Source: Candidatus Shapirobacteria bacterium (GTDB lineage: Bacteria > Patescibacteriota > Microgenomatia > UBA12405). From it: a stretch of DNA of 44,380 bases. A program made the translations under genes and the position numbers. The notes beneath the pieces are model-generated. The model saw nothing but the letters and a program-made list of their open reading frames with translations, ran no database searches and was not told the origin of the DNA. The first letter of the stretch is position 1. Each line of letters starts with the position of its first letter. The stretch is taken from NCBI GenBank assembly GCA_030698565.1, contig JAUYJS010000003.1:142187-186566 (forward strand). The letters run 5' to 3'. Positions 19,472 to 44,380 of the stretch are shown here, in pieces.

Positions 19472-19499
19472 TTTCCCTTTTCCAGAATATACTAAATAA

Positions 19500-19916
19500 G
19501 TGGCATCAAAAAAAATTATCTTCGTAATTATATTTCTTTCAATTTCGCTGATAGCTTCTATGTTCTTGGTACTAAGAACCACTGTTTTTTTTGGCAAAGC
19601 TACCAGTTCCAACAGTTCACCAATCGTTTTGGAAAATTCCTATCTCTTTGCCTCGCCTATCCAAGCCAAAGCCGATGGCAAAGAAAAAATTAGAATCACC
19701 GCCTTTCTTCTGGATGGTCAAGGTTTAGGCATTTCCAACCTCAAAGTCTCACTTCAATTGCCCCAAAATGTCTCCGTCCTCGCCATCCAATCTGTTACTG
19801 ACGATACCGGTAAAGCCGTCTTCGACCTTTCTTCTAGTGTTGCTAAACAATTAGACATTGCCGCCCAGGTCAACAACAAAACCATCCCCCAAAAAGTTAA
19901 GATTGTGTTTTATTAA
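19500..19916 (+). CDS. Small membrane-anchored Big_1-like (bacterial Ig-like) protein P6
   Basis: GTG start, TM, then ADGKEKIRITAFLLDGQGLGISNLKV...TDDTGKAVFDLSS, typical of invasin/intimin-type Ig domains. Confidence 0.55.
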   Translation: MASKKIIFVIIFLSISLIASMFLVLRTTVFFGKATSSNSSPIVLENSYLFASPIQAKADGKEKIRITAFLLDGQGLGISNLKVSLQLPQNVSVLAIQSVTDDTGKAVFDLSSSVAKQLDIAAQVNNKTIPQKVKIVFY

Positions 19917-19929
19917 AACCCACCCTTCT

Positions 19930-20003
19930 GTAGGGGCGACCCTGGCGGTCGCCCCATTATTTGATCCATTATTATTCAGGGCGGGGGCTAGCCCCGCCCC
20001 TAC
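19930..20003. mobile_element. REPIN-like composite B+C (copy 2)
   Basis: GTAGGGGCGACCCTGGCGGTCGCCCC-ATTATTTGATCCATTATTATTC-AGGGCGGGGGCTAGCCCCGCCCCTAC. Confidence 0.8.
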
Positions 20004-20014
20004 AGAATCAAAAA

Positions 20015-25314: not shown

Positions 25315-25571
25315 GTAGAGACGCACTGTGTGCGTCTCTTTATTTAAAATAAATATTTTATTGTTTGTAGAGACGCATACAATGCGTCTCTACAAAACAC
25401 AACATATCCAATGTAGGGGCGATTCATGAATCGCCCCTACCAACCCGTCATTGCGAGGACAAAGGACGAAGCAATCCCATTCTGTGTAGAGACGCGCTGC
25501 AGCGCGTCTCTACAAATATTCCACCAAATATTTGTTTTTTTCAATGAACAGACACAACGGTCTGTTCCTAC
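25315..25571. repeat. Ordered array of six hairpins: E, E, A, F, E, D
   Basis: E 25315-25339, E 25367-25393, A 25413-25440, F 25447-25478 (GTCATTGCGAGGACAAAGGACGAAGCAATCCC), E 25486-25513, D 25546-25571. Confidence 0.85.
25318..25345 (+). terminator. Intrinsic terminator formed by a family E hairpin plus a T-tract, downstream of G1
   Basis: GAGACGCAC-TGT-GTGCGTCTC followed by TTTATTT, about 20 nt after the G1 stop. Confidence 0.55.
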
Positions 25572-26572: not shown

Positions 26573-26610
26573 GAACAGACACAAAGGGGCGATTCATGAA
26601 TCGCCCCTAC
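26573..26610. repeat. Chimeric hairpin: left half of family D fused to family A lacking its GTA
   Basis: GAACAGACACAAA|GGGGCGATTCATGAATCGCCCCTAC. Confidence 0.7.
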
Positions 26611-26621
26611 AGAATCAAAAA

Positions 26622-26738
26622 ATGTTATCCTTTTTATACACACTTATGCCTCGTAATAAACCCACCACTAACATTAGATCCCCCTTTTTGAGGTCGTTAG
26701 ATCCTCGAAGAGGAGGGATTATAGGGGGTTTTAAATGA
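26622..26738 (+). CDS. 38-codon upstream ORF ending in an ATGA overlap with the G2 start
   Basis: MLSFLYTLMPRNKPTT... The first 11 codons are identical to the G1 N-terminal extension; AGGAGG lies about 18 nt upstream of ATG 26735. Confidence 0.3.
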   Translation: MLSFLYTLMPRNKPTTNIRSPFLRSLDPRRGGIIGGFK

Positions 26739-29700
26739 CCCGCTTTTCCTATAAATCCCTTTTCATTATTCTCTTCTTTCTACTGATTGGTATTGTGGCC
26801 TTATTTAAATTTTATCCTCAGAATAAAATTTCTGCTGCCTGGTGGAATGATGGTTGGGGGTATAGGACGAGGGTTGATGTTACCAATTCTTCCGGTTCTG
26901 ATCTTAGCAATCAAAGAATTAAAATTACGCTAAACACCTCTACTCTTATTTCCACTGGCAAGATGCAATCGGATTGTGATGATATTAGAGTTACTAGTCA
27001 AAGTGGTAAACTCCTTGACCATTGGGTAATAAATTGCAATAGTTCTTCATCTTCAGTCTATGTAAAAATGGAGGATCTTCCTAGCTCGGGGTCCAATGTG
27101 TTTGTTTATTATGGCAATCCTTCAGTTTCCAATATTGAGAATACATTGGGATCAACCAACTACCCAGGAACATCATGTCAAATGATGCGTGATCAGGGCA
27201 GTGTTACTTCTGATGGATTATATTACGTCACTCCAGGTGGCAACGATGATAATAAAATCCAGGTTTATTGTGACATGACTACTGATAGTAGTGGTTGGTC
27301 TTTAGTCCTTAACCACGTCTCAAGCTCTACACCTGGACCAAATCCCAACTGGAATCAAGTTGTGAATAATATTAATACATCAGGCACTTACAGTTCTGAC
27401 TTAACTTCGTTTTCCCTTTTTCTTGGAGTAAAGCATTGGAATTATCTAGGTGATTACATTAGAGTTGAAGTTGGATCAAGTCCAACAAGTATTACCAAGC
27501 GCTATGATTACACCAGCTTTTCATTAGATACTGGAAACTACTATGCGCTCACTATGTCTGGTGAAACTCAGATCACGGGAACTGGCTCACCGGGAATTTA
27601 TTCATATCATAATAACAGACCTTTAACTACAACAGATGCGGATCATGACGCCAGTGGAAGCAATTGTGCCAATAGCTATAACTATGCTTGGTGGTATGGT
27701 TCTTGTTGGAACGGAAGTTTTTGGGGTAGTACCGTTAGTCACCAAGATCGAGCATTTTGGACAGGGTCTACCTCTGACTACCATAACTACGGAGGACTAT
27801 GGCTCAAGGGAGACGATTCTATGGAAAATATCTCCACCGGTACCCCTGCCACCGAGGAACAATCCCTTGCCCCCATCGCCTATTGGAAATTTGATGAAGG
27901 TGTTGGTACTACTGCTTATGATTCCAGTTCAAGTGCCTTAAACGGTCTTATTAGTGCTGCCACCTGGCAAACTGAAGACCAATGTATGACTGGAAAATGT
28001 CTCTACTTTAACGAGTCAACAAGTTATGTAAGCTTAGGCACCAATAATACCCTCACTAAAAATATAACCAATATAACTATCAGCGCTTGGGTTAAATTGG
28101 GTAAAGATTTAGGTACCGTGTCCGATAATTATGAAATTATTTCCAACGAATCTTACCAAAATTATGGCTATTTGTTCAGAGTGGAAAACACTACCTCCAC
28201 TGCTACCGCCGGTAAAATTCATTTTAGGTTTAGCCAGGCGGGGGCCAGCACCAATGTTACCGCTCAATCCAATTCTTTTCCCAATGATCACCAATGGCAT
28301 TATCTCGTCGGAACTAAAAATGGTACAGTAGGAAAAATTTATTTAGATGGTAAAGAGATGACACTCTCTACAAATCAATCACTTTCTAATCCAGTGGATG
28401 CCTCCGGCGCTACTCAAATTGGCGGTATATCACAACGATGGAATGGCTTCCTTGACGACGTTAAAGTTTATCCCTATGCTCGATCTGCAACGCAGATTAA
28501 ACAGGATTATGCCGCAGGTAAGTCCCATTCATCTTCCACCAAAGGCACCTCGGCTAATTTAGGTTCTAGTAACCAAAATCTTTCCGCTCTCACCGACGGC
28601 CTAATTGGTTATTGGAAAATGGATGAAAACGTCGGAACAACAACTGTCGATTCTTCGGGAAATAATAATACTGCCACTCTCGGCACCGGCAATTCCGCCC
28701 CCACCTGGTCACCTGGAAAATACGGGGTTGGTTTAAGTTTCAATGGAACAACAAATTACATCAAGGTCTCTTACGATGCTTCATTAAAAAAGCCAGTGAG
28801 TGCAATTACAATGGGAGCATGGGTGAAGCTCAATAGCACCGGAGGTTGGCAGAGTGTGGTCCAATATCCTCAACAAGATGGAAGCCATGTCAGCACTTAT
28901 TTTGATTGGGCAATATATGTTGGTTCAGGGGGAGGGCTTCACACAAGAATTGATGGAGAAAGCTCAGGAACCTATGGTACTATATCTTGGGGTGAGTGGA
29001 CACATGTTGCTATAGCATGGGATGGTTCTTCTACTTTGGTTAAGTACTATATAAATGGAGCGTTAGTTGGAACCTATGATGGAACGAAGACAAGTATAGT
29101 ATATGACAACAACAACCCTGTTTATTTTGGACAAAACGCCGGAGGAGGTGAAAAACTCAGCGGTTCCCTCGACGAAGTCCGTATCTACAACCGTGCCCTC
29201 TCCCCTTCCGAAGTTTCCCAACTCTACAATTGGGCACCCGGACCAATTGGTTATTGGGATTTTAATGAAAATGTAGGCACTACTGCTTATGATAAAAGTG
29301 GTAACAACTACAGTGGATCATTAGGCGCTGATAATTATTCTCCTACATGGGACATTGGAAAATATGGTTCTGGATTAAAATTTAATGGCAATCAATTTGT
29401 AAATTTAACCAGATTTGCCAATAAAGGCATTTCCGTAAATTTATCAAATTTTACAGTTTCAACTTTTATTAAGCCAACATTAATTAATGGAAACTCAAAA
29501 GCCATTTATGTCGAAGGCGCCGGTGGTTCAACTGGTAGTTCTTGGGCAGGTATTTTTTTGGTTAATAATGAAATTAGAGTTCATTTTAAAACTTATAATA
29601 CTGGCGACTTAATTTTATATGATACTGTTGGAGCAAATGTTACTGCTAATAATATTTATTATATTACAGTAACTCGAACCGGAAACAATTTCACTACATA

Positions 29701-32035
29701 TGTAAATGGCATTATTCGCGGCACAGGGACCCATTCAGGGGCCAGTTGGAACAGTTATCCTCCTGGAGTTTCACCCAGCATTGGTGATCACCATTATTAT
29801 TCTAATTCAAAATTTTTTTCAGGGATCATCGACGATGTCAAAATTTATAACTACCCTCGCAACCAAAGACAAATTATCGAAGACATGAACGCCGGCCACC
29901 CTATTGGCGGCTCCCCGGTCGGTTCCCAACTAGCTTATTGGAAAATGGACGAAGGCTATGGATCAACCACCAACAATTCCGGCTTTGGAGGTTCTGTTTT
30001 AAATGGTACTTTTGGCACCGGCAACTCCGCCCCCACCTGGACTAATAATGGTAAGTTCAACAAAGCTTTAAGTTTCGATGGCGGGGATTATACAACCATT
30101 AGTGATAATCCTGCCCTCGATATAGGTTATTCGGGTAGCATTTCCATTTCAGTTTGGTACTACTCTACTACTGCTGATACTAATACCCATACTATTTTAG
30201 CCAAACGCCAAACCGACTCCAGCACTAATACAGATTATATATTATTTATTTCAAATAATTATTTAACCTGGGGGACAGGAGATTCAACTGATTCTGTCGC
30301 CTGGATGTCCATTACTGAGCCATCCAGAAACCAATGGCATCAGATAGTTGCTGTCTTGTCTCGTGATACCAGTCTAACAGGAACAAAATATTTATATGTT
30401 GATGGAAATTTAGTTTCTTCTGGAACTTATGCAACTAAAGCTAATGCAACCAGCACTCCATTATATATCGGTAAATATAATGGAAGTGGAGCTTTTTGGG
30501 AAGGCCTTATTGATGAAGTTAAAATTTACAACACAGCCTTAACTGCTGAAGATATCAAACTAGATTATAATCGAGGTTCTGCCATAGTTATGGGCAATTT
30601 AGGAACCAATTCATCAGGCGCTGTCGATGCTTCTTCAAATAGATCATACTGTATCCCCGGCGATACTTCGACCTGCAACCCCCCAGTCGGCGAATGGAAA
30701 TTTGAGGAAGGTGTGGGGACTACTGCTTATGATACCAGCGGCAATAATAATAATGGAATTTGGCAAGGCACACTTGGCAATCAATGGTCCCAAGGTAAAA
30801 TTGGTAAAGCCGGTAGTTTTAATGGCGCCAATAATTATATTTTAGGAACAAACAATTTAGGAATTTCCGGAAATGCAGAATTTACCATGTGTGCCTGGAT
30901 GAAATGGATCGGAATTTCATGGCCATCAGATTATCCATCATTTATGGGAAACAATTCAACCGGCTCTACCAATAACGGATTAAGTTTTACTGTTTATCAA
31001 GGCAGACCTGCAATTGATTTTTGGGTAAATCGTTGGCGAGCCTCAAACGCCTTATCTTTAAATACTTGGTATTATGTTTGTGGTACTAAAACAGCCGGAA
31101 CAATTTCAACCACATCAAAAATTTATGTAAATGGACAGCTAGTTTCAGGAGCAGTGGAAGGAACTGACACAACACCAAATATTACCGATTCACCTCCTGT
31201 AATAGGAAGGTTAGACGGAACACGTTGGTTTCAAGGTCTCATCGATCAAGCAGAATACTTTAACTACGCCCGCACACCAGCTCAAGTCGCCTGGGACTAC
31301 AACCGCGGTGGACCTGTGGGTCACTGGAAATTTGACGAATGCCAAGGATCTATAGTTTACGATTCTTCTGGTGTCGGCACCACTGGTGGTATATCAATTG
31401 GTACCTCTGGAACCCAAAATTCCCTTGGAACCTGTGCTGTTGGCACATCAGCAGCCTGGACCAATGGCGCTAGCGGTAAACTCAACTCATCGCTAAGTTT
31501 TGACGGAATCGACGACTATATAAACTTAGGAAACAATACCAACTTAAATCCTCAACAACACGGCTGGTCAACATCTTTCTGGGTTAAATCAAGTCAAAAG
31601 ACGAGTCAAAACGGTGGTTATGTTAGGGTTATGGGTAGAATTTCTGGAGGTGCTCCTTATTGGATATTGAGAACTCACACAAATAATGGAGATTATGCTG
31701 TTATGCAAATGTTAGATGCTAGTAGCAACAGTGGAGGTGTCAGCGGAACTAATACAGTTACTGATGGTGTTTGGCATCATCTTGTGTTCGTTTACGATTA
31801 TAATAATTCTAAGTCTTACATATATCTAGACGGAGTTAGGGATGGATATAACGACTGGACAGGAACAAGTATGGGTACTGTAAATCCGTCTCTTCCCCTA
31901 CATATAGGTCAGGCCAACGCTAATTCAGAATTCTTTTCCGGCCAAATTGATGATGTTCGTATTTATAATTACGCTCTCACCGCCACCCAAACCAAAACTC
32001 TTTACAATAATGGGGCTGTGAATTTTTCGAATTAA
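26735..32035 (+). CDS. Giant surface protein G2: TM anchor, DUF2341, canonical fibrinogen-related domain, six LamG domains
   Basis: Same architecture as G1. Fibrinogen-like motifs: SC..., YYVTPGG...IQVYCDM, TTTDADHDASGSNCANSYNYAWWYGSCWNGSFWG. Confidence 0.85.
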   Translation: MTRFSYKSLFIILFFLLIGIVALFKFYPQNKISAAWWNDGWGYRTRVDVTNSSGSDLSNQRIKITLNTSTLISTGKMQSDCDDIRVTSQSGKLLDHWVINCNSSSSSVYVKMEDLPSSGSNVFVYYGNPSVSNIENTLGSTNYPGTSCQMMRDQGSVTSDGLYYVTPGGNDDNKIQVYCDMTTDSSGWSLVLNHVSSSTPGPNPNWNQVVNNINTSGTYSSDLTSFSLFLGVKHWNYLGDYIRVEVGSSPTSITKRYDYTSFSLDTGNYYALTMSGETQITGTGSPGIYSYHNNRPLTTTDADHDASGSNCANSYNYAWWYGSCWNGSFWGSTVSHQDRAFWTGSTSDYHNYGGLWLKGDDSMENISTGTPATEEQSLAPIAYWKFDEGVGTTAYDSSSSALNGLISAATWQTEDQCMTGKCLYFNESTSYVSLGTNNTLTKNITNITISAWVKLGKDLGTVSDNYEIISNESYQNYGYLFRVENTTSTATAGKIHFRFSQAGASTNVTAQSNSFPNDHQWHYLVGTKNGTVGKIYLDGKEMTLSTNQSLSNPVDASGATQIGGISQRWNGFLDDVKVYPYARSATQIKQDYAAGKSHSSSTKGTSANLGSSNQNLSALTDGLIGYWKMDENVGTTTVDSSGNNNTATLGTGNSAPTWSPGKYGVGLSFNGTTNYIKVSYDASLKKPVSAITMGAWVKLNSTGGWQSVVQYPQQDGSHVSTYFDWAIYVGSGGGLHTRIDGESSGTYGTISWGEWTHVAIAWDGSSTLVKYYINGALVGTYDGTKTSIVYDNNNPVYFGQNAGGGEKLSGSLDEVRIYNRALSPSEVSQLYNWAPGPIGYWDFNENVGTTAYDKSGNNYSGSLGADNYSPTWDIGKYGSGLKFNGNQFVNLTRFANKGISVNLSNFTVSTFIKPTLINGNSKAIYVEGAGGSTGSSWAGIFLVNNEIRVHFKTYNTGDLILYDTVGANVTANNIYYITVTRTGNNFTTYVNGIIRGTGTHSGASWNSYPPGVSPSIGDHHYYSNSKFFSGIIDDVKIYNYPRNQRQIIEDMNAGHPIGGSPVGSQLAYWKMDEGYGSTTNNSGFGGSVLNGTFGTGNSAPTWTNNGKFNKALSFDGGDYTTISDNPALDIGYSGSISISVWYYSTTADTNTHTILAKRQTDSSTNTDYILFISNNYLTWGTGDSTDSVAWMSITEPSRNQWHQIVAVLSRDTSLTGTKYLYVDGNLVSSGTYATKANATSTPLYIGKYNGSGAFWEGLIDEVKIYNTALTAEDIKLDYNRGSAIVMGNLGTNSSGAVDASSNRSYCIPGDTSTCNPPVGEWKFEEGVGTTAYDTSGNNNNGIWQGTLGNQWSQGKIGKAGSFNGANNYILGTNNLGISGNAEFTMCAWMKWIGISWPSDYPSFMGNNSTGSTNNGLSFTVYQGRPAIDFWVNRWRASNALSLNTWYYVCGTKTAGTISTTSKIYVNGQLVSGAVEGTDTTPNITDSPPVIGRLDGTRWFQGLIDQAEYFNYARTPAQVAWDYNRGGPVGHWKFDECQGSIVYDSSGVGTTGGISIGTSGTQNSLGTCAVGTSAAWTNGASGKLNSSLSFDGIDDYINLGNNTNLNPQQHGWSTSFWVKSSQKTSQNGGYVRVMGRISGGAPYWILRTHTNNGDYAVMQMLDASSNSGGVSGTNTVTDGVWHHLVFVYDYNNSKSYIYLDGVRDGYNDWTGTSMGTVNPSLPLHIGQANANSEFFSGQIDDVRIYNYALTATQTKTLYNNGAVNFSN

Positions 32036-32052: not shown

Positions 32053-32325
32053 GTAGAGACGCGCTGCAGCGCGTCTCTACAAAACACAACATATCCAATG
32101 TAGGGGCGATTCATGAATCGCCCCTACCAAACGTAAACATTATATTTAATTCCGCCCATTCTGTAAGGGCGACCCTGGCGGTCGCCCCATTATTTGATCC
32201 ATTATTATTCAGGGCGGGGGCTAGCCCCGCCCCTACGTTTTTTTAATGAACAGACACAAAGGTCTGTTCCTACAATCATATTTCCCCATTTATCCGTCAT
32301 TGCAAGGACAAAGGACGAAGCAGAT
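32053..32325. repeat. Hairpin array E, A, B+C, D, F downstream of G2
   Basis: E 32053-32080, A 32100-32127, B+C 32163-32236, D 32248-32273, F-variant 32296-32325. Confidence 0.85.
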
Positions 32326-32984: not shown

Positions 32985-33169
32985 ATAGAGACGCATACAA
33001 TGCGTCTCTATAAAACACAACATATCCAATGTAGGGGCGATTCATGAATCGCCCCTACCAAACGTAAACATTATATTTAATTCCACCCATTCTGTAGGGG
33101 CGACCCTGGCGGTCGCCCCATTTTGTTTAATTCATTTTTATTCAGGGCGGGGGCCAGCCCCGCCCCTAC
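32985..33169. repeat. Hairpin array E, A, B+C; a direct repeat of 32053-32236
   Basis: E-variant 32985-33011, A 33031-33058, B+C 33094-33169. The inter-hairpin spacers are also conserved (AAAACACAACATATCCAAT; CAAACGTAAACATTATATTTAATTCC). Confidence 0.85.
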
Positions 33170-33190
33170 CAAAAACCACATCTTAATTTT

Positions 33191-33208
33191 ATGTAATAAT
33201 AATTACAT
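33191..33208 (+). promoter_or_regulatory. Operator-like palindrome ATGTAAT-N4-ATTACAT overlapping the toxin start codon
   Basis: The same motif sits immediately upstream of the decayed toxin start (26528-26545). Confidence 0.4.
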
Positions 33209-33521
33209 GGAAACATTTTTTATTAACCCAGATTTAAGAGAATATATTTATTCATTGGATAAAGCGACATTATCAAAATTCATTAGATTATCTGATCTGT
33301 TAGAAACATATGGAGAAAAATTGGGCATGCCATATTCAAAAAAAATTCAGAAGAATCTTTATGAATTAAGAATCCATGGTCAACGCGAAATCCGCGTATT
33401 TTATTGTTTCTATCGAGACAAAACTGTTTTTGTCCACGCAATTATTAAAAAATCCAGAAAAACACCAACTCAAGACATAAAAACAGCAATGATAAGAATT
33501 AAACAATTAACAAACATATAA
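33207..33521 (+). CDS. Intact Gp49/HigB-type toxin (RelE/ParE superfamily)
   Basis: 104 aa; LYELRIHGQREIRVFYCFYRDKTVFVHAIIKKSRKTP is typical of phage Gp49-like (DUF891) toxins. The track start at 33123 lies inside hairpin C. Confidence 0.7.
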   Translation: METFFINPDLREYIYSLDKATLSKFIRLSDLLETYGEKLGMPYSKKIQKNLYELRIHGQREIRVFYCFYRDKTVFVHAIIKKSRKTPTQDIKTAMIRIKQLTNI

Positions 33522-34404: not shown

Positions 34405-34830
34405 TTATTTTTTTCTAAACGTCACCGTTAATTTATTATTTAAAAATGCTCCATTAACACTCGCCTCAAGTTCAAATTGCCTCGCTTCTATTGAAGTCAT
34501 CGTAAAAGTCGCTTTACCCAAGTTATCACTCACACTACTTGCCGGACTCACAGTATTTATACCATTCAAACTCACTGTCTTGCCCGAAATTCCCTTGCCA
34601 CTTCTATCAACCACAAAAACATTAACAACGCATTTGTCTTCCCCATCGGCCACGGCCAAAATTTTTGACCCAATTAAAAGAGATTTACTTAAATCAACCT
34701 TACCCACAGTCGATGCCCGAGTAAAAGTTACTAAGGACTTGGGAATTAGTTGCCAGGCAAAAAAATAAACCAAAACCAACCCCACTATCAACCCAGTCAA
34801 ACTGACTATAAATTGCTTATTAACTTTCAT
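34405..34830 (-). CDS. Small membrane-anchored Big_1-like protein, inverted paralogue of 19500-19916
   Basis: TM, then ADGEDKCVVNVFVVDRSGKGISGKTVSL...SDNLGKATFTMTS. Confidence 0.55.
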   Translation of the reverse strand: MKVNKQFIVSLTGLIVGLVLVYFFAWQLIPKSLVTFTRASTVGKVDLSKSLLIGSKILAVADGEDKCVVNVFVVDRSGKGISGKTVSLNGINTVSPASSVSDNLGKATFTMTSIEARQFELEASVNGAFLNNKLTVTFRKK

Positions 34831-35782: not shown

Positions 35783-36295
35783 ATGGACACTGCTCTAAAC
35801 ACCACACTAGAACCATTCAGACTTTGGTTACAAAATAAAAACCTATCTTCATCAACTGTTCGCAATTATGTAGTCGACGTTAATAAATATCTAAAATTTA
35901 TTGACAACAAATACGGACAGCTCGCCAAACAATCCCATCTTCAGTACGGACAGGTCGCGACCTGTCCCTACACAGAATCAAATCTCGAGCAATATATCTC
36001 CTCCATTTCCTCCGACCCCAACAACTCTCGCTATTTAGCTTCCCTAAATAAGTTTTGCCAATTCGCCCTAGATCAAAAACTAATCAAATCAAATCCAATA
36101 AAAAAAATTCTCCATCGTCGTAAAAGTGATTCACAACCTGTCCTAAATACAGAAAACTTAATTTCCCAATATCAAAAACACCTGATTCACAAAAATTTCT
36201 CCCAAAACACTATAAAAAACTATATCAATGACATACACCAGTTTATAAATTGGGCAGAAAAAAACAATCGCCCTGTTAAGGGAGATGTCACGTAG
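35783..36295 (+). CDS. Protein made of two tyrosine-recombinase N-terminal SAM-like (core-binding) modules, with no catalytic domain
   Basis: FRLWLQNKNLSSSTVRNYVVDVNKYLKFI and YQKHLIHKNFSQNTIKNYINDIHQFINW match the Phage_integrase N-terminal SAM-like pattern. Ends at TAG TGA, in the same frame as the next ORF. Confidence 0.6.
   Translation: MDTALNTTLEPFRLWLQNKNLSSSTVRNYVVDVNKYLKFIDNKYGQLAKQSHLQYGQVATCPYTESNLEQYISSISSDPNNSRYLASLNKFCQFALDQKLIKSNPIKKILHRRKSDSQPVLNTENLISQYQKHLIHKNFSQNTIKNYINDIHQFINWAEKNNRPVKGDVT
35944..35971. repeat. Family G palindrome GTACGGACAGGTCGCGACCTGTCCCTAC, in-frame in CDS 35783-36295
   Basis: 28 nt with one arm mismatch; translated YGQVATCPY. Confidence 0.75.
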
Positions 36296-36300
36296 TGACA
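36286..36300. repeat. Small palindrome TGTCAC-GTA-GTGACA carrying tandem in-frame stops TAG TGA
   Basis: Stops at 36293-36298 separate two ORFs that share one reading frame. Confidence 0.7.
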
Positions 36301-36313
36301 GAGGGTTTGTTCA

Positions 36314-39300
36314 ATGAATTTAAAATTTAACCAATCGCAATTCGACCAATATGCGGCTTTTCTAAAAAGCACCGATGCTTCTCCAGCCTCAATTCAAAGA
36401 AAGCTATCCTCCCTCGCTTCTTTCCAAAAATTTTTAATCAAAAAGAAATATATTTCTCCTCCTGTACGGGCGATTCATGAATCGCCCGTACATTCCATTA
36501 CCTCAAAAAAATTTTTCATCCCTTTTTCAAAATATCTTATTATAGCTAGTTTAATCATTATTGCCTCTGGTCTTCTTTATGGCCTTTATACCCAAACCAT
36601 ACTCAAAGCTCAAAAGAACTTAGCTTATTCCACCATTGCCAGTCCAGCTCGACCAGGCCGCTCCTTGTCATTTCAAGGACGACTGACCGATTCTTCAGGT
36701 AATCCAATAAGTTCATCGACCGGTATTATTTTTAGGCTTTACGATACAGCCGCTGTCGGCACAGGCACTTCTCTTTATTCTTCTGACATTGGCAACTCTC
36801 AAACAGTAACACCGGACGAAAACGGAATTTTTTCAGTGGTTATTGGCACCACTCACGGCACCGAAATTTCCGAATCTGTTTTTTCCGAGAACACTGCTGT
36901 GTATTTAGAAATTACCGCCGGCAGTGAAACCATGTCTCCTCGTCAACAAATTGCCACTGTCGCCTATGCTCTGAACGCAGAAACATTACAGGGACTGCCT
37001 CCCTCTGCTAGCGGTCTAAAAGATACTGTCATGGTGATCGACGCTCTTGGTAATTTAAATTTAGGCGAAACTTCCCCTACTATCAAATCTGTCTCAGGTA
37101 CTTTTGCCATTGAAGGTCAAAGCCTACTTCTAAAAGCTTCTGATGGTTCTGGCGGTAACATCGAAATCAATCCCGATGCCGCCGGTATTATTAAACTCAC
37201 CACCGAAGGGGTTGGTACCACAGTTCAAGGCTTTATTTCTGCCACCAACGCCAACTTAACCACGGGTAATTTATACGAAGGCGTCATCAACAATACCAAT
37301 CGCAATTACAACTTTTTAGAATTCAAAAATTACGATGTCGGTACCAGCACTATTGCTTCTCGTTTTACTGTTACAGCCGGGGGTAATGTTACTGCAGGTG
37401 GAAATCTTTCGGTGGGCATTGGCATTACCTCTCCTAAAATTACTCTCACCACTGGTGCTAACAATGGCTATCTACTCCAATCTGATGCCAATGGCACTGC
37501 TTCCTGGGTTTCCGCTTCTGGCATTGGTGGTACCTACACCGCGGGTAACGGTTTGACCCTTTCTGGTTCTCAATTCAAATTAGGCGGAGCCTTAACCGAA
37601 GCCACTAGACTAAATATTGGTTCAACTGAAGTCATGTATCTCTCCACCGCTGGCAATGTTGGCATCGGTGTTACCAATCCTATTGAAAAACTTCACATCA
37701 CAGGCAACATCCTCCAATCAAAATCATCTGATTCTGCTGGTGGTGCTGGTATTTATTTAGGAAGTGATACTGGAAGAAACTGGGGTCTAAGGAAAAGCAC
37801 TACCGGCAATAATTTTAATATCGATTACTATAACAGTTCTTGGAACACAGCTCTTTCAATTCTAAATTCAAATGGCAATATCGGCATCGGTACCACCAAC
37901 CCTCTTTCCAAACTCTACATTTCTGATGTTGGTTTCACTGGTAATTTCTTAACCATCAACGACGGATCTTCCGATCTTGTCAATATCTCTTCTGTCCAAT
38001 CTACTTTCAACAATCCAACTTCCTTCACCTCTGCTGGTGATGTATCAATTGCTTATGACTTAAATTTCACCAACCCCACAGCCTCTTATATCAAATCTTC
38101 TGCACCCATCTACCTTCAATCTGGCGAATCTTTCAATTCTTCTGATTTAATTCTTAGGACTTTTAATGCTGGCGACATTGTCCTCGATGCCGCCGGCGGA
38201 GTCACCCTAGCCCAAGCCCAAAACTGGAATTTGGCCACTTCCACCACCGCCCTAAATGTTCAATCCGGTTTATTAAATTTAGATACAACAAACGGTCGGG
38301 TTGGCATTGGCACTACTAGTCCTGAAGCCGCCCTAGATATCAAAAATGTTTTGACTTTAGACAAAACTGGTTCAGCTAGTGTGATTTTAAATGCTACTGC
38401 CGGAGGATGGTTCTATTTCCAACGTGCCGGAAATAATGAGTTAACTATTAACAATTTAGGCAATGTCGGTATTGGTACTGCCAATCCTCTTTACAAACTC
38501 GAAGTTAATGGTTCTCTTCTTGCCACTACCATTGGTGCTGGTGCTACTGACCCTAATTATTCTTTGTATACCAATGGCAAGTTTGGTGTCGGTTCTACCG
38601 CTTACTTTGCTTCTTATGTGGGTATTGGGACGACGAGTCCAGGTGCAAAGTTAGAAATCAATTCAGCAGCGAATGGATCAGGATATGGATTGAAAATAAA
38701 CACAAATACCAGAACTACAGGCGAGGGGTATATTTGGTTAGGTGACGCCACTACACCTGATTTTTATATAAATACAACTGGCAACGTCGGCATCGGCACC
38801 ACCAACCCCACCCACCTTTTACAAGTCAGCAAGACCACCACTGGAGACGATTATGGCATCAAGGTTATTACCGATGGTGTTTCTTATGATACTGGCATTC
38901 TCATCGGCCGATCCGCTGTCAATGGTGCCGGCATCCGAATGGTCACCGGCACTACCGATTATTTAGGCTTTATGGTCAGCGGTTCTACTTTGCCGGCCTT
39001 CACCACCACTGCCCAAATGGTTCTTAATGAAAGTGGCAATGTGGGTATAGGTACCACCAATCCTGGTTACAAACTCGAAGTTAATGGTTCTCTTTTAGCT
39101 ACCACCATTGGTGCTGGTGCCACTGATCCTAATTATTCTCTTTACACTAATAGTAAATTTGGTGTCGGTTCTACCGCTTACTTTGCTTCTTATGTGGGGA
39201 TTGGGACTACAGGACCAACCGAAAAACTCGATGTGAGCGGTTCTGTCAACGCAACAGATATTAAGATAAGTACTCAATCTCTAGATGCAAGATACAAGAA

Positions 39301-42300
39301 TTTAGATGTTGTAAAATCTCAGATTAGTGAGATAACTGGCACTGGCTATAGTACTAATTATGGCACTAGTTTTGGATATCCTGATTGGGGAAATCTCAGT
39401 TCACTTTTACCAAATGGTACGGTTATATCTTATGGTGGTCGCGGTAAAGTTAGTCAAGTAGGTGACAGAGTTATAATGTTCGTTTATAGAGATGATTGGA
39501 GCTGGTCCTCGTCTGTGTATCTTAGCGATGATGGTCAGACAAGTTATGGAACTTTTCGTTATACTACGGCAACAGTGGGAGGAAATGCCGGCTCACCTCT
39601 CTATGCTGGAGTTTGGAATCAACCCGAAGACGGTAATTATGGCACAATATATGCCAAAGATATAATTTTAGTTAAAGAAAGAGTGGCTTTTGGTAGCAGT
39701 TTTGAGCCTAATACTACATTTATGGTTGGCAACGTCGGCATCGGCACCACCAACCCTACCTCTAAACTGCATGTAGTTGGTAATGGTAATATCACTACCA
39801 ATTTATCTGTTGGTGGTACTCTCACCTTTACTGGTGTTAATGTGGGTACTGGTACTACTGCTCTCTTTGTTGATGGTTCAGATATTGTGACTAAAAGAGC
39901 TTTAGGTGATTTAGCTTTCCTCAATAATACTTCTTTAGGCTGGGTAGCTTTTGGTTCTGCCGCTCAAACTGTTGCTACTGGTACCACCCTTTCCTTTACT
40001 GGCACCAACGGTTTAACCACTACTTCAGTTGGTACAACTCAAATTACTTTTGGTCTAGGTGGTACTTTAACTGCCAACACTTCCATTGGCACTTCTTCTT
40101 TTTCTTTGTCTTTTTTGGGCTTGGGTAATACTCAGTCACTCTATATTGCTTCCAGTGGCAATGTCGGCATCGGGACAACTAATCCAGTAACCAAATTAGA
40201 CATTGTTGGTGGTATACGAATGACTGCTAATAATTCCATACAATTTGGTTCTACTTCCACCTCCATTATTTCAGACGATGGCGGAGATAAAATAAAACTC
40301 AGTGGCTATTCAGGACTAACTTTTTATTCAGCCGTAAATACTGCCGACCATATTTTTACCAACAACCAAACGGGGGAATTGATGAGAATTAAAGGCACTG
40401 GCCTTGTCGGCATTGGTACCACAAATCCTCTTTACACCCTTCAAGTTGGTGGTACCGGCACACTCGGAATCGGTGGTACCGCTTACTTTGCTTCGTATGT
40501 CGGCATCGGGACGACAGGGCCTAGTCAAAAATTGGAAGTGGCAGGAAGTATAGTCATTGCAAAAGATAGTGCTTATCGTTCAAATGATGCTTCCGGCAAT
40601 GACAGATGGCTGATGGGTGTTGCCGGTGCTTCAGGAAGTGAATACACCCAATTTTCTATACCGTCAACTGGTGGGTATCTAAGGTTCACTGACTTAAATG
40701 CTAATGAGTTAGTACGAATTACAACAGCGGGCTCCGTCGGCATCGGTACCACCAATCCTCTTTTCAAACTTGATGTCAATGGCAATGCTAATATTGCCAC
40801 TAATTTAAATGTTGGTGTTGGTCTCACCTCTCCCAAAATTACTCTAACCACTGGTGCTAACAATGGTTATCTACTACAATCTGATGCAAATGGCACTGCC
40901 ACTTGGGTTTCGGCTTCTGGTATTGGTGGCACCTACACTGCCACTAATGGTTTAACCAAGACTGGCTCAGCTTTTGGTCTCGGTGGCACTTTAACCCAAA
41001 ACACTTCCATTGGCACTTCTTCTTTTTCTTTGTCTTTTTTGGGCTTGGGTAATACTCAGTCACTCTATATTGCTTCCAGTGGGAATGTGGGCATCGGTAC
41101 GACTAATCCGGGGGCGAAGTTGGAAGTATCGGGAGCAACAACATTACGGGGAGGAGATTTGCTTGTTGGTGGTGCGGGATGGGATTTGTTAAGAGTGGAT
41201 GTTACGGGAACAGACGAAGGGACTCATATTCTCACCAGAGGACTAACTATTGGAAATGCTTATACAAGCATAGAACCAGCTGATGGTGTTTTATTAGTAA
41301 GTGGCAACCTCGGCATCGCTACCACCAACCCCACCAATCTTCTCCAGGTAAATACTGACACTGCCGGCAAAGGATTCCTTCTCTATGATGATGTTAGTGG
41401 CCGGAATATTGCTTCTCTTACTCGAGGCAGCAGCAGTAATGATCCTGGAATGTTACAACTCTACAATGCTGGCTCTGAAACAATCAGATTTAATGGTGAA
41501 TCTGGAACAACCTCATGGATAAATAATGGCGGCCTAGTCGGCATTGGGACAACAGCCCCAAAATACAAACTCGAAGTTTCCGGTTCTCTTCTTGCTACCA
41601 CCATTGGTGCTGGTGCCACTGATCCTAATTATTCTCTTTACACTAACGGTAAATTTGGTGTTGGTTCTACTGCTTACTTTGCTTCTTATGTGGGGATTGG
41701 GACTACTAATCCAACCCAAAAACTGGACTTGGTGGGTTCTATGAAGTTGGAGAATACTACTACATCAACTACGGGAGTAATCTACAAAGGAACAGACAGG
41801 TTCATCCATAACTTCCAACATCCTACAGGAGGCGGAGCGGTACCAGATGGATATAACACATTTGTTGGAGTAAACTCAGGTAACTTCACCATGGGGTCTA
41901 GCGCTACGGTGGCTTCTCACGGCTCCAGGAACTCTGCTCTGGGTCAGGGTACCCTCCAATTAAACACCACCGGTTACCAAAACTCTGTTGTGGGTGCGAG
42001 TGCCCTCAATTCCAACACCACAGGTTACAGCAACTCTGCTCTGGGTGTGAGTGCCCTCCAAATTAACAACACCGGTTACCAAAACTCTGCTGTGGGTACG
42101 CTTGCCCTCTATTCCAATACCACAGGTTACAGTAACTCTGCCCTGGGTGTAAATGCAGGCAGATATATAACAGGTAATGCAGCCAACGAAACTTCTAATA
42201 CCTCCTTGTATCTAGGAACATCAACTAAAGCTCTGGCAGACGGAGGAAGTAATGAAATTGTAATTGGTTACAATACCACAGGTTTTGGTTCTAACTCCGC

Positions 42301-44380
42301 CGCTTATGGCAACAGCAGTATCACAAAGCACATATTCCAAGCAGGCTCTGTCGGCATTGGCACCACCAACCCCACCTCCAAACTTCATGTTGTTGGTAAT
42401 GGTAATATCACTACTAATTTAACTGTTGGTGGTACTCTCACTTTTACTGGTGTTAATGTGGGTACTGGTACTACTGCTCTCTTTGTTGATGGTTCAGGTA
42501 TTGTGACTAAAAGAGCTTTGGGTGATCTTGCTTTCCAAGATACCACTGATTTAGGCTGGGTGGCTTTTGGCTCTTCAGCTCAAACTGTTGGCATTGGTAC
42601 CACTCAATACTTTACTGGTATTAATGGTTTGACTACTACTTCAGTTGGTACAACTCAAATTACTTTTAAATTAGGTGGAGCCCTGACCGAAGCTACTAGA
42701 CTTAATATTGGCTCGACTGAAGTTATGTATTTTTCCACTGCTGGCAATGTTGGGATTGGAACCACAGGGCCAGATCAAAAGTTAGTTGTAAATGGCGGAT
42801 TAGTTAAGTCAACAAATGTGGGCACACTGGGATTTGTTGCAGATTATACCGGAGGAAAAGCAGCCGCCCTAACTGCCGGAACTTTACGAGCAGCTTTTTT
42901 GTACGATGATTCTGGTTCATTTTCAATTCAAAAAACTCCAAGAGCGAGTGTTTTAACAGGTACAGCAAATGCATCAAACAGTGTCTTTGAAATAGACTCT
43001 TCCGGCAACGTCGGCATTGGCACCACCAATCCAGGCACCAAATTAGATATACTTCAAATTGGCAATACTAATCAATTTAGAACATACACTACAGGCAATA
43101 CCATTGCAGCTCGTACCTATTCCACGACTGATGGATTCGGATTAATTATAAATTCATATCAATCACAAACTGGTGGTGCTCCTTATTTAAGAACCAACGA
43201 TATCGTCGCTTCTACTGGAGATGCATCAGGATCGCAACTCAGGTTTTTTACGAAACCAGCAAGTGGAAATCCAGCAGCAAATATGGTGATAGACAAAGAT
43301 GGCAATGTCGGCATCGGCACCACCGCCCCAATTGCTACCACCTGGGACGTTCCTCAGGCCGCAGCAACATCAATAAAATTGGATCTAAGTGGAGGAAGTT
43401 ATCACGTTACCAATAGCGGTGGACTCTATATTGGAGATGAAGCAACAAATGATATCGGAGGAGCTCATTTTAGCTATGATCAGACCCTAAATAATATTTA
43501 CATCTATGGAATTAAACAGGGTGTTGCAGCTGCAAATACTATATTCCGATCTGGCAACATCGGCATCGGTACCACCAATCCCCTTTATCAACTTCACACC
43601 ACTGGTGTAGCTTTGATTGGTACTAAGCTTGGGATTGGAGCAACGTCAGCTTCTACTTTTAATGTTGTTGGTAATGGTAATATCACTACCTCTTTGTCTG
43701 TTGGTACTTCCCTATCTGTCACTGGTAATGCCTCTATTGGTGGGACTGCTTCAGCTCCTGTATTTTCTGCTTCTTCTCGCTTTTTAACTGCTAATGGTAC
43801 TGTTTCTGTTCCTTCTTACTCCTTTACCAATAGTCTTAATACTGGTCTCTACTTACCTTCTACTGCTGTCTTAGCTATTGGTACTTCTGGGGTGGAGAGA
43901 TTAAGGATTAGTGCTAATGGCAATGTCGGGATTGGGACGACGGGACCTATTTCACTACTTCATGTTTATCAAAATAATGCTGATGTGGGTGTCAGCTCTG
44001 GAATAACTATTGAACAAGACGGTACAGGTGCTTCTATACTTCAATTTTTATTAACAGGAAATTATAGATATACAATGGGTGTTGGTACTAGTGCTAGTGG
44101 TGCTAAATTTCAAATTGGAAGAGGAATTGGTTGGGCAACAGGAATCGATATTACACTTGATCATTCAGGCAACGTCGGCATCGGCACCACCAACCCTACC
44201 TACAAACTTCATATTGTTGGTAATGGTAATATCACTACCAATCTTTCTGTCGGTGGCACTCTCACCTTTACTGGGGTTAATGTGGGTACTGGTACTACTG
44301 CTCTCTTTGTTGATGGTTCAGGTATTGTGACTAAAAGAGCTTTGGGTGATTTAGCTTTTCAAGATACCACTGATTTAGGC
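36314..44380 (+). CDS. Giant membrane-anchored fibre protein, 3'-partial (>2689 codons): SAM-like module, TM helix, about 20 GNVGIGTTNP..KL tail-fibre-type repeats, one YadA/Hep_Hag-like repeat block
   Basis: Hand translation from ATG 36314 stays open with the motif in frame at every point checked, including 37654, 38459, 39728, 41303 and 44168. No ORF of 60 aa or more in this frame appears in the track, as expected if ORFs lacking a stop inside the window were omitted. TM is YLIIASLIIIASGLLYGLY. Confidence 0.8.
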   Translation, partial: MNLKFNQSQFDQYAAFLKSTDASPASIQRKLSSLASFQKFLIKKKYISPPVRAIHESPVHSITSKKFFIPFSKYLIIASLIIIASGLLYGLYTQTILKAQKNLAYSTIASPARPGRSLSFQGRLTDSSGNPISSSTGIIFRLYDTAAVGTGTSLYSSDIGNSQTVTPDENGIFSVVIGTTHGTEISESVFSENTAVYLEITAGSETMSPRQQIATVAYALNAETLQGLPPSASGLKDTVMVIDALGNLNLGETSPTIKSVSGTFAIEGQSLLLKASDGSGGNIEINPDAAGIIKLTTEGVGTTVQGFISATNANLTTGNLYEGVINNTNRNYNFLEFKNYDVGTSTIASRFTVTAGGNVTAGGNLSVGIGITSPKITLTTGANNGYLLQSDANGTASWVSASGIGGTYTAGNGLTLSGSQFKLGGALTEATRLNIGSTEVMYLSTAGNVGIGVTNPIEKLHITGNILQSKSSDSAGGAGIYLGSDTGRNWGLRKSTTGNNFNIDYYNSSWNTALSILNSNGNIGIGTTNPLSKLYISDVGFTGNFLTINDGSSDLVNISSVQSTFNNPTSFTSAGDVSIAYDLNFTNPTASYIKSSAPIYLQSGESFNSSDLILRTFNAGDIVLDAAGGVTLAQAQNWNLATSTTALNVQSGLLNLDTTNGRVGIGTTSPEAALDIKNVLTLDKTGSASVILNATAGGWFYFQRAGNNELTINNLGNVGIGTANPLYKLEVNGSLLATTIGAGATDPNYSLYTNGKFGVGSTAYFASYVGIGTTSPGAKLEINSAANGSGYGLKINTNTRTTGEGYIWLGDATTPDFYINTTGNVGIGTTNPTHLLQVSKTTTGDDYGIKVITDGVSYDTGILIGRSAVNGAGIRMVTGTTDYLGFMVSGSTLPAFTTTAQMVLNESGNVGIGTTNPGYKLEVNGSLLATTIGAGATDPNYSLYTNSKFGVGSTAYFASYVGIGTTGPTEKLDVSGSVNATDIKISTQSLDARYKNLDVVKSQISEITGTGYSTNYGTSFGYPDWGNLSSLLPNGTVISYGGRGKVSQVGDRVIMFVYRDDWSWSSSVYLSDDGQTSYGTFRYTTATVGGNAGSPLYAGVWNQPEDGNYGTIYAKDIILVKERVAFGSSFEPNTTFMVGNVGIGTTNPTSKLHVVGNGNITTNLSVGGTLTFTGVNVGTGTTALFVDGSDIVTKRALGDLAFLNNTSLGWVAFGSAAQTVATGTTLSFTGTNGLTTTSVGTTQITFGLGGTLTANTSIGTSSFSLSFLGLGNTQSLYIASSGNVGIGTTNPVTKLDIVGGIRMTANNSIQFGSTSTSIISDDGGDKIKLSGYSGLTFYSAVNTADHIFTNNQTGELMRIKGTGLVGIGTTNPLYTLQVGGTGTLGIGGTAYFASYVGIGTTGPSQKLEVAGSIVIAKDSAYRSNDASGNDRWLMGVAGASGSEYTQFSIPSTGGYLRFTDLNANELVRITTAGSVGIGTTNPLFKLDVNGNANIATNLNVGVGLTSPKITLTTGANNGYLLQSDANGTATWVSASGIGGTYTATNGLTKTGSAFGLGGTLTQNTSIGTSSFSLSFLGLGNTQSLYIASSGNVGIGTTNPGAKLEVSGATTLRGGDLLVGGAGWDLLRVDVTGTDEGTHILTRGLTIGNAYTSIEPADGVLLVSGNLGIATTNPTNLLQVNTDTAGKGFLLYDDVSGRNIASLTRGSSSNDPGMLQLYNAGSETIRFNGESGTTSWINNGGLVGIGTTAPKYKLEVSGSLLATTIGAGATDPNYSLYTNGKFGVGSTAYFASYVGIGTTNPTQKLDLVGSMKLENTTTSTTGVIYKGTDRFIHNFQHPTGGGAVPDGYNTFVGVNSGNFTMGSSATVASHGSRNSALGQGTLQLNTTGYQNSVVGASALNSNTTGYSNSALGVSALQINNTGYQNSAVGTLALYSNTTGYSNSALGVNAGRYITGNAANETSNTSLYLGTSTKALADGGSNEIVIGYNTTGFGSNSAAYGNSSITKHIFQAGSVGIGTTNPTSKLHVVGNGNITTNLTVGGTLTFTGVNVGTGTTALFVDGSGIVTKRALGDLAFQDTTDLGWVAFGSSAQTVGIGTTQYFTGINGLTTTSVGTTQITFKLGGALTEATRLNIGSTEVMYFSTAGNVGIGTTGPDQKLVVNGGLVKSTNVGTLGFVADYTGGKAAALTAGTLRAAFLYDDSGSFSIQKTPRASVLTGTANASNSVFEIDSSGNVGIGTTNPGTKLDILQIGNTNQFRTYTTGNTIAARTYSTTDGFGLIINSYQSQTGGAPYLRTNDIVASTGDASGSQLRFFTKPASGNPAANMVIDKDGNVGIGTTAPIATTWDVPQAAATSIKLDLSGGSYHVTNSGGLYIGDEATNDIGGAHFSYDQTLNNIYIYGIKQGVAAANTIFRSGNIGIGTTNPLYQLHTTGVALIGTKLGIGATSASTFNVVGNGNITTSLSVGTSLSVTGNASIGGTASAPVFSASSRFLTANGTVSVPSYSFTNSLNTGLYLPSTAVLAIGTSGVERLRISANGNVGIGTTGPISLLHVYQNNADVGVSSGITIEQDGTGASILQFLLTGNYRYTMGVGTSASGAKFQIGRGIGWATGIDITLDHSGNVGIGTTNPTYKLHIVGNGNITTNLSVGGTLTFTGVNVGTGTTALFVDGSGIVTKRALGDLAFQDTTDLG
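36464..36491. repeat. Family A palindrome variant GTACGGGCGATTCATGAATCGCCCGTAC, in-frame in the giant ORF
   Basis: Translated VRAIHESPVH between the SAM-like module and the TM helix. Both arms carry compensatory changes, so the stem is preserved. Confidence 0.85.
37428..37675 (+). repeat. Intragenic repeat blocks reused at 40826-41105 and 42668-42765
   Basis: SPKITLTTGANNGYLLQSDANGTA.WVSASGIGGTYTA.NGLT recurs at 40826. KLGGALTEATRLNIGSTEVMY.STAGNVGIG recurs at 42668. The SSFSLSFLGLGNTQSLYIASSGNVGIG block occurs at 40066-40180 and 40990-41105. Confidence 0.75.
38492..38636 (+). repeat. About 145-nt intragenic repeat; copies at 39068-39210 and 41564-41708, partial copy near 40437-40520
   Basis: YKLEVNGSLLATTIGAGATDPNYSLYTN.KFGVGSTAYFASYVGIGTT, with high nucleotide identity. 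Confidence 0.8.
39728..40063 (+). repeat. About 335-nt intragenic super-repeat; further copies at 42344-42678 and 44168-44380 (cut by the window end)
   Basis: Near-identical DNA encoding GNVGIGTTNPTSKLHVVGNGNITTNL.VGGTLTFTGVNVGTGTTALFVDGS.IVTKRALGDLAF. Confidence 0.8.
41900..42330 (+). repeat. Degenerate 14-15-aa tandem repeats of YadA-head/Hep_Hag style within the giant ORF
   Basis: NSALGQGTLQLNTTGYQNSVVGASALNSNTTGYSNSALGVSALQINNTGYQNSAVGTLALYSNTTGYSNSALG. Confidence 0.6.

Follow-up and report, generated by a model that had tools for sequence, protein, structure and literature searches.

Results

Two Adjacent Genes Share One SAM-Like Domain

Two genes, here called U and D, follow one another on the forward strand of a 44,380-nt stretch from Candidatus Shapirobacteria bacterium (GenBank assembly GCA_030698565.1, contig JAUYJS010000003.1, positions 142,187 to 186,566; hereafter the window), and the subject of this analysis is the junction between them (Table 1). 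The open reading frame (ORF) of U starts with an ATG at 35783, encodes 170 aa and stops with the TAG at 36293-36295. A TGA (36296-36298) stands directly 3' of this TAG, and after five sense codons (CAG AGG GTT TGT TCA) the ATG at 36314-36316 opens the ORF of D, which is in the same frame as U and is still open at the end of the window (>2,688 aa). Both stops are enclosed by the palindrome TGTCAC-GTA-GTGACA (36286-36300), the TAG starting in the loop and ending on the first base of the 3' arm, and the TGA lying inside the 3' arm. An earlier note on this DNA had pointed out the shared frame, the TAG TGA followed by five sense codons, and the palindrome around both stops, all of which direct reading found to be exact.

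U is composed of one complete integrase-type SAM-like domain plus helices A and B of a second one, while D begins with helices C and D of that second domain. In U, the first SAM-like or core-binding domain (helices at approximately residues 4-97) is followed by a linker helix and by helices A2 (residues 123-136) and B2 (residues 141-161), and the final nine residues are a tail encoded by the repeat element described below. The matches of PF13495 and PF13102 to residues 123-161 comprise only the first part of these profiles, and in U alone the second domain matches only positions 1-36 of the Pfam profile Phage_int_SAM_1, residues 8-45 of D corresponding to positions 46-83. In an artificial read-through fusion of U and D (PF02899 E = 1.4e-15), a single PF02899 match covered positions 1-83 of the 83 in the profile (fused residues 127-222), and because this one full-profile match spans the stops, the stops fall inside the second SAM-like domain. 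Thus, where the earlier note had counted two SAM-like modules in U and a third in D, the Pfam match on the fusion identified the supposed third as the second half of module 2. Helices A2 and B2 hold the most conserved motif of the family, T-I-K-N-Y-I-N-D-x-x-Q-F-I-N-W, in which T143, N146, Y147 and D150 are nearly invariant among 80 cluster representatives. The N-terminal peptide of D is (M)NLKFNQSQFDQYAAFLK, and its helices C2 and D2 read F-D-Q-Y-A-A-F-L-K ... R-K-L-S-S-L-A-S-F-Q-K-F-L.

A profile built from continuous homologues together with the fusion matched core-binding domains in the PDB across both halves, namely 3nrw, 2key, XerA (5hxy) and the recombinase-like 9i5v chain, with E-values from 1e-6 to 7e-3. 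The AlphaFold2 (AF2) model of a continuous distant homologue (P0126) contains two four-helix domains, the second with helices at residues 125-134, 139-161, 179-192 and 197-216 and a B-C loop of low confidence. The best PDB folds for this model were recombinase core-binding domains (3nrw, template modelling score 0.71, root-mean-square deviation 1.7 Å), at weak Foldseek E-values (0.06-1). For U itself, AF2 with an 80-sequence alignment returned a model with a mean predicted local distance difference test (pLDDT) score of 90.8, in which helices 123-136 and 141-161 are the last and are followed by a short disordered tail. No match to the recombinase catalytic domain PF00589 was found when U, the first 400 aa of D and all 2,689 aa of D were scanned with Pfam.

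Behind its half-domain, D has a Lys-rich linker, a single hydrophobic helix (approximately residues 74-92) and long repeats of the GNVGIGTTNP type, and this remaining part of D had no Pfam match. The D orthologue at locus L001 is 4,360 aa long. Because Lys-rich residues precede the predicted membrane helix, the half-domain of D is placed in the cytoplasm by the positive-inside rule, and on this sequence-based topology the SAM-like parts would be cytoplasmic and the repeats of D extracellular.

The Tandem Stops Are Not an Assembly Artefact

The earlier note had proposed a check of the sequence against read data, which confirmed the junction. Two public runs from two groundwater samples (X1 and X2) each yielded one 3,829-nt contig that is identical to the window over 36000-36455, at word depths of 37 and 30, respectively. 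Two independent identical contigs at 30-37x rule out a sequencing or assembly error, and the tandem stops are therefore not an assembly artefact. An alternative genetic code could also be dismissed, since each of the three stop codons also ends other ORFs in this DNA (TAA 17, TGA 3, TAG 2) and long ORFs run uninterrupted under table 11; hence, the standard genetic code applies.

A hairpin of this size is in itself unremarkable, as the window holds 184 hairpins with arms of exactly 6 bp and loops of 0-8 nt. The 15-nt palindrome occurs only once in the window and neither half of the double-hairpin element to which it belongs recurs there, so it could be rejected as a repeat of the window. Exceptional RNA stability was not found at the junction (local fold z = -1.6). 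That the hairpin is a real element is indicated by the comparative evidence given below.

The Split Is Conserved in a Close Clade and Absent from Many Distant Relatives

A protein search with the U-D fusion returned relatives from Woesebacteria and Shapirobacteria that fall into two classes. Proteins of the first class have about 180 aa and end just past NYINDxxQ(F/Y)I(N/S)W, those of the second are long and start about 10 residues ahead of FxQYAA(F/Y)LK...RKLSSLxSFQKFL, and only the distant P0016 and P0018 span both halves in this search. On the contigs of five relatives, U and D were adjacent and co-oriented, with conserved synteny. A scan of species-representative genomes, with loci searched as all stop-to-stop segments using hidden Markov models (HMMs) of U and of the N-terminus of D, gave 80 further loci. 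The close clade (Shapiro- and Woesebacteria) comprises 44 non-redundant loci that carry U and D as separate ORFs, adjacent and co-oriented in all 44 and divided in the same loop, and the only continuous locus in this clade is L018. In distant loci from Collierbacteria and other Microgenomates, U and D are parts of one ORF with HMM matches typically 21-39 nt apart (L056, L059, L060, L062-L065, L067-L072, L076, L077, L079, L081, L085, and L086). The proteins P0016, P0018, P0054, and P0079 (= L018) are continuous as well. Split and continuous forms were placed in separate clades of a rough neighbour-joining tree.

The once-continuous gene assumed in the earlier note thus stands on a deep time scale only, where Collierbacteria-type loci, P0016 and P0018 are one ORF. 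A continuous ORF, which that note had suggested looking for in orthologues, is found in the distant Microgenomates but, with the exception of L018, not in the close clade. What the note had named as evidence against its reading, orthologues that consistently encode two genes with unrelated junction sequence, is largely what we observed, the junction sequences being mostly unrelated.

An exhaustive HMMER search with U identified 610 relatives, and among the best 150 cluster representatives (50% identity) 137 were short stand-alone U proteins and 13 were long. The stand-alone proteins end at a median of 7 residues past the helix-B Trp (80 short proteins). The ratio of non-synonymous to synonymous substitution rates (dN/dS; Nei-Gojobori, 14 pairs) was 0.04-0.24 for U and 0.03-0.25 for D. 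These comparisons show both fragments to be intact and, as judged from dN/dS, under purifying selection across many lineages. Considering the orthologue survey, the stand-alone U proteins and dN/dS together, the fission is old, precisely placed and maintained.

Some further observations were made on the relatives. In five distant loci (L057, L058, L061, L074, and L080), the U-type gene is located 0.5-1 kb upstream of the D-type gene and does not abut it. The continuous protein P0054 (1,064 aa) carries an intein-like insert (CVTGDSKL ... VANGIIAHNT) at residues ~770-1040, within the repeat region. Finally, many records of metagenome-assembled genomes with a locus of this type (L009, L013, L015, L017, L066, and many more) are titled as other taxa, such as 'uncultured Gammaproteobacteria/Pseudomonadales', 'Methanoperedens', 'Bathyarchaeia', 'Spirochaetia' or 'Balneolaceae', which points to mislabelled or contaminated bins.

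Junctions Resemble Those of Translationally Coupled Genes

Relative to U, the frame of D is offset by +1 in 33 of the 44 close loci, by +2 in 6 and by 0 in 5. The start of D lies 11-20 nt ahead of the U stop in 31 loci, the two genes overlap by 1-4 nt in 4 and are separated by a gap in 9; in the window, the gap measures 18 nt when counted from the TAG. The codon at the conserved start position of D is ATG in 17 loci, TTG in 13 (plus 2 with a TTG one codon off), GTG in 8 and CTG in 4. Judged by their sequence, the junctions are shown to be typical of translationally coupled neighbours. The alternative offered by the earlier note, that the split is deliberate and couples termination to reinitiation, gives the best fit, with U and D overlapping or abutting in 35 of 44 loci and with offsets of 0, +1, and +2 all represented.

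A Shine-Dalgarno (SD)-like motif was found in 9 of the 44 junctions, each time supplied by a copy of the repeat, and none was found in the other 35. Within the window, such a motif precedes 3 of 23 ORFs, the GAGGG of D being one of them. Many ORFs of the window have a TATAAT-like box ~5-15 nt from the ATG (e.g., 237, 3656, 7840-10320(-), 13625, and 34405-34830(-)), suggesting that mRNAs are often leaderless or have a very short leader.

A Repeat-Bearing Patch Occupies the Junction of the Window

Presence of the junction sequence varies among closely related strains. While the X1 and X2 contigs carry it, contigs of runs X4, X5, and X6, obtained in other studies, align on both sides and have TTGAATTTAAAT in place of 36261-36322. 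The flanks of these patch-free strains are 95-100% identical, and those of one X6 contig are identical to the window over 73+80 nt. The 62-nt patch includes CGCCCTGTTAAGGGAGATGTCACGTAGTGACAGAGGGTTT. In the patch-free strains, U ends with ...TGG GCA GAA ATT GAA TTT AAA TAA (...WAEIEFK-TAA) and D starts with TTG AAT TTA AAT AAA TTT AAC..., overlapping U in the common +1 overlap type.

The patch contains a copy of a double-hairpin repeat, with hairpin 1 at 36271-36282 and hairpin 2 being the palindrome around the stops. The same junction sequence is found in L001/L002, L012, and L014, with differences mainly in the two hairpin loops and with AAG for TAG; hairpin 2 itself differs there in its loop alone. 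The junction sequence has thus been kept even though synonymous sites have reached saturation between the window and L001 (proportion of synonymous differences, pS, 0.72). In L149, the same insertion occurs with hairpin 2 shorter by one base pair, or 2 nt (TGTCC-GTA-GGACA). The U frame of this locus stays open across the element (..SRPVKGDVRRTEGFVQ), and its stop overlaps the start of D as ATGA. Compared to L149, the stem of the window type is longer by one A.T pair, which shifts the frame and brings the TGA into it. Related double-hairpin copies are present in the U tails of L004, L027, L030, L037, and L039, and copies of the repeat occur elsewhere in L001, L003 (minus strand) and L027.

Scanning metagenome contigs with the pattern CCCTGTNAAGGGAGA-N10-18-AGAGGGTTT identified 61 exact-pattern copies, at least 6 of them on the 337-kb contig Ga0209340_1000008 and 2 on Ga0209340_1000003. 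U/D junctions account for only 2 of the 61 copies; 16 are situated 5-22 nt upstream of a same-strand start codon, and others lie between co-directional genes or inside ORFs. Hairpin 2 varies across the copies in both sequence and length, with the palindrome retained. In a set of 10 sequences, all of one length class and selected by hand, pair 20-26 of hairpin 2 is CG in 5, AU in 3, GC in 1 and UA in 1; of the cells in this set 98% are paired, and the observed score was reached in none of 500 shuffles. No Rfam match at gathering score was obtained for the element in the window or in eight loci carrying it. An intrinsic terminator was not found at the junction, inspection by eye gave no consistent target-site duplications around the element, no terminal inverted repeats were seen and no associated transposase was identified for it.

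According to the earlier note, the insertion of a hairpin had split the gene. This could not be upheld, as 35 of the 44 split orthologues are without the element and the near-identical patch-free strains are split as well. On these comparisons, the hairpin element came later and inserted at a gene boundary that was already there.

Other Palindromes and Genes of the Window

Two further perfect palindromes lie in frame within U and D (Table 1). The one in U, GGACAGGTCGCGACCTGTCC, is not present at the same loop in P0005, and because of its very high contig depth in metagenome runs it is regarded as a repeat. The palindrome in D, TGTACGGGCGATTCATGAATCGCCCGTACA, belongs to the commonest palindrome family of the window and reached contig depths of 235-1990 in metagenome runs. 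This family has nine perfect copies in the window (9416-9445, 9547-9578, 13189-13218, 15903-15922, 25413-25440, 26585-26608, 32100-32127, 33031-33058, and 36463-36492), which share the core GGGCGATTCATGAATCGCCC and measure up to 32 bp; of the nine, five fall within ORFs, with two copies in 7840-10320(-) and one each in 13002-13559(-), in D and at the end of 15026-15931. In addition, there are intergenic arrays of different GC-rich palindromes in similar order (15.90-16.04, 19.93-20.00, 25.31-25.57, 32.05-32.27, 32.98-33.17, 33.92-34.18, and 35.04-35.35 kb), with the units AGAGACGCGCTGCAGCGCGTCTCT, AGAGACGCATACAATGCGTCTCT, GGGCGACCCTGGCGGTCGCCC, GGGCGGGGGCTAGCCCCGCCC, and GAACAGAC-N6-GTCTGTTC, reminiscent of mosaic clusters of repetitive extragenic palindromes (REP) and bacterial interspersed mosaic elements (BIME).

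ORFs 19961-25297 and 26735-32035 encode paralogous proteins of ~1,770 aa with six LamG_3 (concanavalin-like) repeats, which also match pentaxin, fibrinogen-C or DUF2341. Small Big_1 (invasin-like Ig) proteins are encoded at 19500-19916 and 34405-34830(-), and a Gp49-family gene is located at 33123-33521; the LamG_3/Big_1 region is a surface-protein gene cluster. The GC skew is strongly negative (-0.26 to -0.46) over positions 1-20000 despite genes on both strands, and near zero at 20-32 kb. Two adjacent tRNA genes are found at 5325-5398 and 5412-5483.

Table 1. Coordinates of genes, domain halves, junction elements and palindromes at the U/D locus (window numbering).
Feature	Position	Strand	Evidence or content
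Gene U, 170 aa	35783..36295	+	Pfam PF02899 E=8e-13; AF2; dN/dS; stand-alone relatives
Perfect 20-bp palindrome GGACAGGTCGCGACCTGTCC, in frame (GQVATCP), B-C loop of U domain 1	35948..35967	.	
Helices A2-B2, first half of SAM-like domain 2	36149..36271	+	Pfam, alignments
Junction patch, 62 nt, present or absent among strains	36261..36322	+	Joints in X4, X5, X6 contigs
Double-hairpin repeat copy, CG-CCCT-GTTA-AGGG-AGA-TGTCAC-GTA-GTGACA-GAGGGTTT	36269..36308	+	Metagenome copies
Tandem stops TAG TGA ending U	36293..36298	+	TGA common to L001, L012, L014; TAG strain-specific (AAG there)
Shine-Dalgarno-like GAGGG, 8 nt before ATG 36314	36301..36305	+	From 3' end of repeat
Gene D (partial, >2,688 aa)	36314..44380	+	C2-D2 (aa 8-45), linker, membrane helix, repeats
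Helices C2-D2, second half of SAM-like domain 2	36335..36448	+	Pfam profile 46-83
Perfect 30-bp palindrome TGTACGGGCGATTCATGAATCGCCCGTACA, in frame (VRAIHESPVH), between D half-domain and membrane helix	36463..36492	.	
Predicted membrane helix of D, YLIIASLIIIASGLLYGLY	36533..36589	+	Translation; conserved in orthologue alignment

Discussion

An Ancient Gene Fission With a Secondary Repeat Insertion

U and D form a real, conserved gene pair derived from an ancient fission, and the repeat-bearing patch is secondary; we consider it probable that, in addition, their half-domains reassemble and their translation is coupled. The locus is neither a pseudogene nor a recoding site. The ancestor was a single gene encoding a giant membrane-anchored surface protein of Microgenomates, which belong to the Candidate Phyla Radiation (CPR) bacteria, and the break falls in the B-C loop of the second of its two N-terminal, predicted cytoplasmic core-binding ('SAM-like') four-helix domains of the tyrosine-recombinase type. 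U and D are probably translated separately from one mRNA, with initiation at D coupled to termination at U, and their half-domains would re-associate non-covalently, so that U would be a soluble subunit in the cytoplasm, attached to the tail of the giant protein. At this position, the tandem core-binding-like domains might bind DNA or a partner protein. In the lineage of the window, the ancestral overlap junction, with a TTG start 14 nt before the TAA stop, was replaced by the 62-nt patch. From the patch come the TGA, which lies in the hairpin 2 stem (3' arm), the strain-specific TAG (from AAG), the SD-like GAGGG and the ATG, and the same frame of U and D in the window is a chance outcome of patch length.

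Four observations weigh against this explanation. U modelled alone is predicted with confidence (pLDDT ~98 on A2-B2), and for this reason it might be stable without D. P0079 (= L018) and P0054 are fused forms within an otherwise split family, and the split is thus not obligatory. At the conserved start of D, four orthologues (L028, L030, L031, and L037) have a CTG; the segment lacks any canonical start in L028, L030, and L037, and the only one in L031 is a TTG 32 nt ahead of the U stop. Rare CTG initiation, reinitiation without a canonical start or inactive copies could explain these cases. Lastly, since the genome is SD-poor, the missing SD motif at most junctions is weak evidence for coupling.

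Alternative Explanations

The confident prediction of U alone and the five distant loci with U 0.5-1 kb from D (L057, L058, L061, L074, and L080) would also be expected if U and D were functionally independent neighbours, with half-domains that are separate folds or vestiges and do not reassemble. We find this unlikely, as the most conserved motifs of the two genes are precisely the half-domains (NYINDxxQFINW in U and RKLSSLxSFQKFL in D), adjacency and co-orientation are kept in all 44 close loci, and the two are fused in frame in L018/P0079 and P0054.

Programmed +1 frameshifting, which would join U and D in the overlap-type lineages and make the family in reality one protein, is improbable. 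Although D is in the +1 frame with an overlap of 11-20 nt in 33 of 44 loci and the D start is CTG, not a canonical start, in four, no conserved slippery sequence exists and U stops are preceded by various codons (TCT, AAA, ACT, AAC, AAT, GTT, CAA, and others). Moreover, the length of the overlap varies, offsets of +2 and 0 occur as well, and ATG, GTG or TTG is found exactly at the conserved start in 38 of 44 loci and a TTG one codon off in 2 more.

It is very improbable that programmed stop read-through or hopping over the hairpin produces a U-D fusion in the in-frame lineages. Such a process could account for the shared frame in the window, L001/L002, L003, L012, and L014 and for the position of the stops in a conserved hairpin, and the L001-type junction has only one UGA with a C after it, which is known as a leaky context in E. 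coli. However, only 5 of 44 junctions are in frame and 39 are out of frame, D retains a start codon of its own at a conserved site, the same insertion stands in another frame in L149, and the two consecutive stops of the window are the opposite of a leaky signal. As for hopping or bypass, reading of the junction revealed no matching take-off and landing codon pairs into the frame of D.

Recent pseudogenisation, by which the hairpin insertion would have broken a continuous gene and left U as a decaying remnant or the whole gene dead, is hardly credible despite the inserted repeat copy, the strains with 95-100% identical flanks that lack it and the existence of continuous homologues, and we exclude it because of the orthologues and the element-free strains: the patch-free strains are also split, 44 genomes share the split loop, the ORFs are intact with dN/dS of 0.04-0.24 for U, and D has an ATG with an SD motif ahead.

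Comparison With Known Systems

The locus is a combination of known kinds: gene fission, coupled overlapping genes and a dispersed repeat resembling REP and Rickettsia palindromic elements (RPE). The SAM-like domains share the four-helix fold and sequence family of the core-binding domains of tyrosine recombinases (XerD 1a0p, XerA 5hxy, lambda Int 1z19, and Haloarcula tnp 3nrw). In contrast to these enzymes, U and D have two tandem copies at the N-terminal, cytoplasmic end of a giant membrane protein, with the second copy divided between two polypeptides, and according to the Pfam scans they are without the catalytic domain. The database names 'site-specific integrase' and 'XerD' given to U and D proteins are therefore misleading.

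Gene fission with fragment complementation is known from the split genes of Nanoarchaeum equitans and from naturally split DnaE. As in those cases, the ancestral gene is continuous in relatives, the cut lies within a domain, and both adjacent pieces are under purifying selection. However, the cut between U and D crosses a helical bundle of ~90 residues that links a small soluble protein to one of >2,600 residues, and there is no intein or trans-splicing signature at the junction.

Overlapping pairs coupled by termination and reinitiation are exemplified by the UGAUG-type junctions of the trp operon. U and D are likewise co-oriented, their start and stop overlap or abut, non-ATG starts are frequent and a separate SD motif is mostly lacking, but their overlaps of 11-20 nt are unusually long, and the window has instead an 18-nt spacer with its own repeat-borne SD motif.

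Dispersed palindromic repeats include the RPE, the REP and BIME of E. coli and the Correia elements of Neisseria. Similar to these, the double-hairpin element is short, has many copies, lies mostly between genes but is also accepted in frame within ORFs, is present in some close strains and missing from others, and keeps its stems by compensatory change; it differs in being only ~40 nt long, with two hairpins and a purine-rich 3' end (GAGGGTTT), and in its frequent position near a start codon.

In recoding sites such as the bypass of phage T4 gene 60 and the +1 frameshift of prfB, a stop is associated with a hairpin. The window resembles them in having a stop within or next to a stem-loop between two coding segments of the same frame, whereas no take-off and landing match or slippery site is present, the frame relation is not conserved and the stops are in tandem.

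Searches of the accessible literature found no description of this family, of the U/D split or of the double-hairpin repeat, and nothing relevant on SAM-like N-termini of giant CPR proteins or on in-frame palindromic repeats in CPR bacteria.

Implications

Since U and D have no catalytic domain, the labels 'site-specific integrase' and 'XerD' inflate the counts of mobile-element genes in CPR bacteria; public records use them for small U proteins as well as for the N-termini of the giant ones. We put forward as a tentative possibility that split-domain docking is a reversible arrangement under selection in more than 100 CPR lineages, and that the ~40-nt repeat, with its structure and its SD motif, may serve as a portable translation-initiation cassette in SD-poor genomes, where it would have colonised this boundary repeatedly and rewritten the stop, the spacer and the start. 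The family offers a clean and deeply sampled case of fission through a small domain that has long been kept, with occasional fused forms, and is thus useful for studying how split domains persist. It further illustrates that a tiny dispersed hairpin repeat can rewrite the boundary between two genes, including stops, SD motif, start and frame relation, with both genes surviving. In conclusion, in-frame tandem stops between homologous-looking halves are by themselves no proof of a pseudogene or of recoding.

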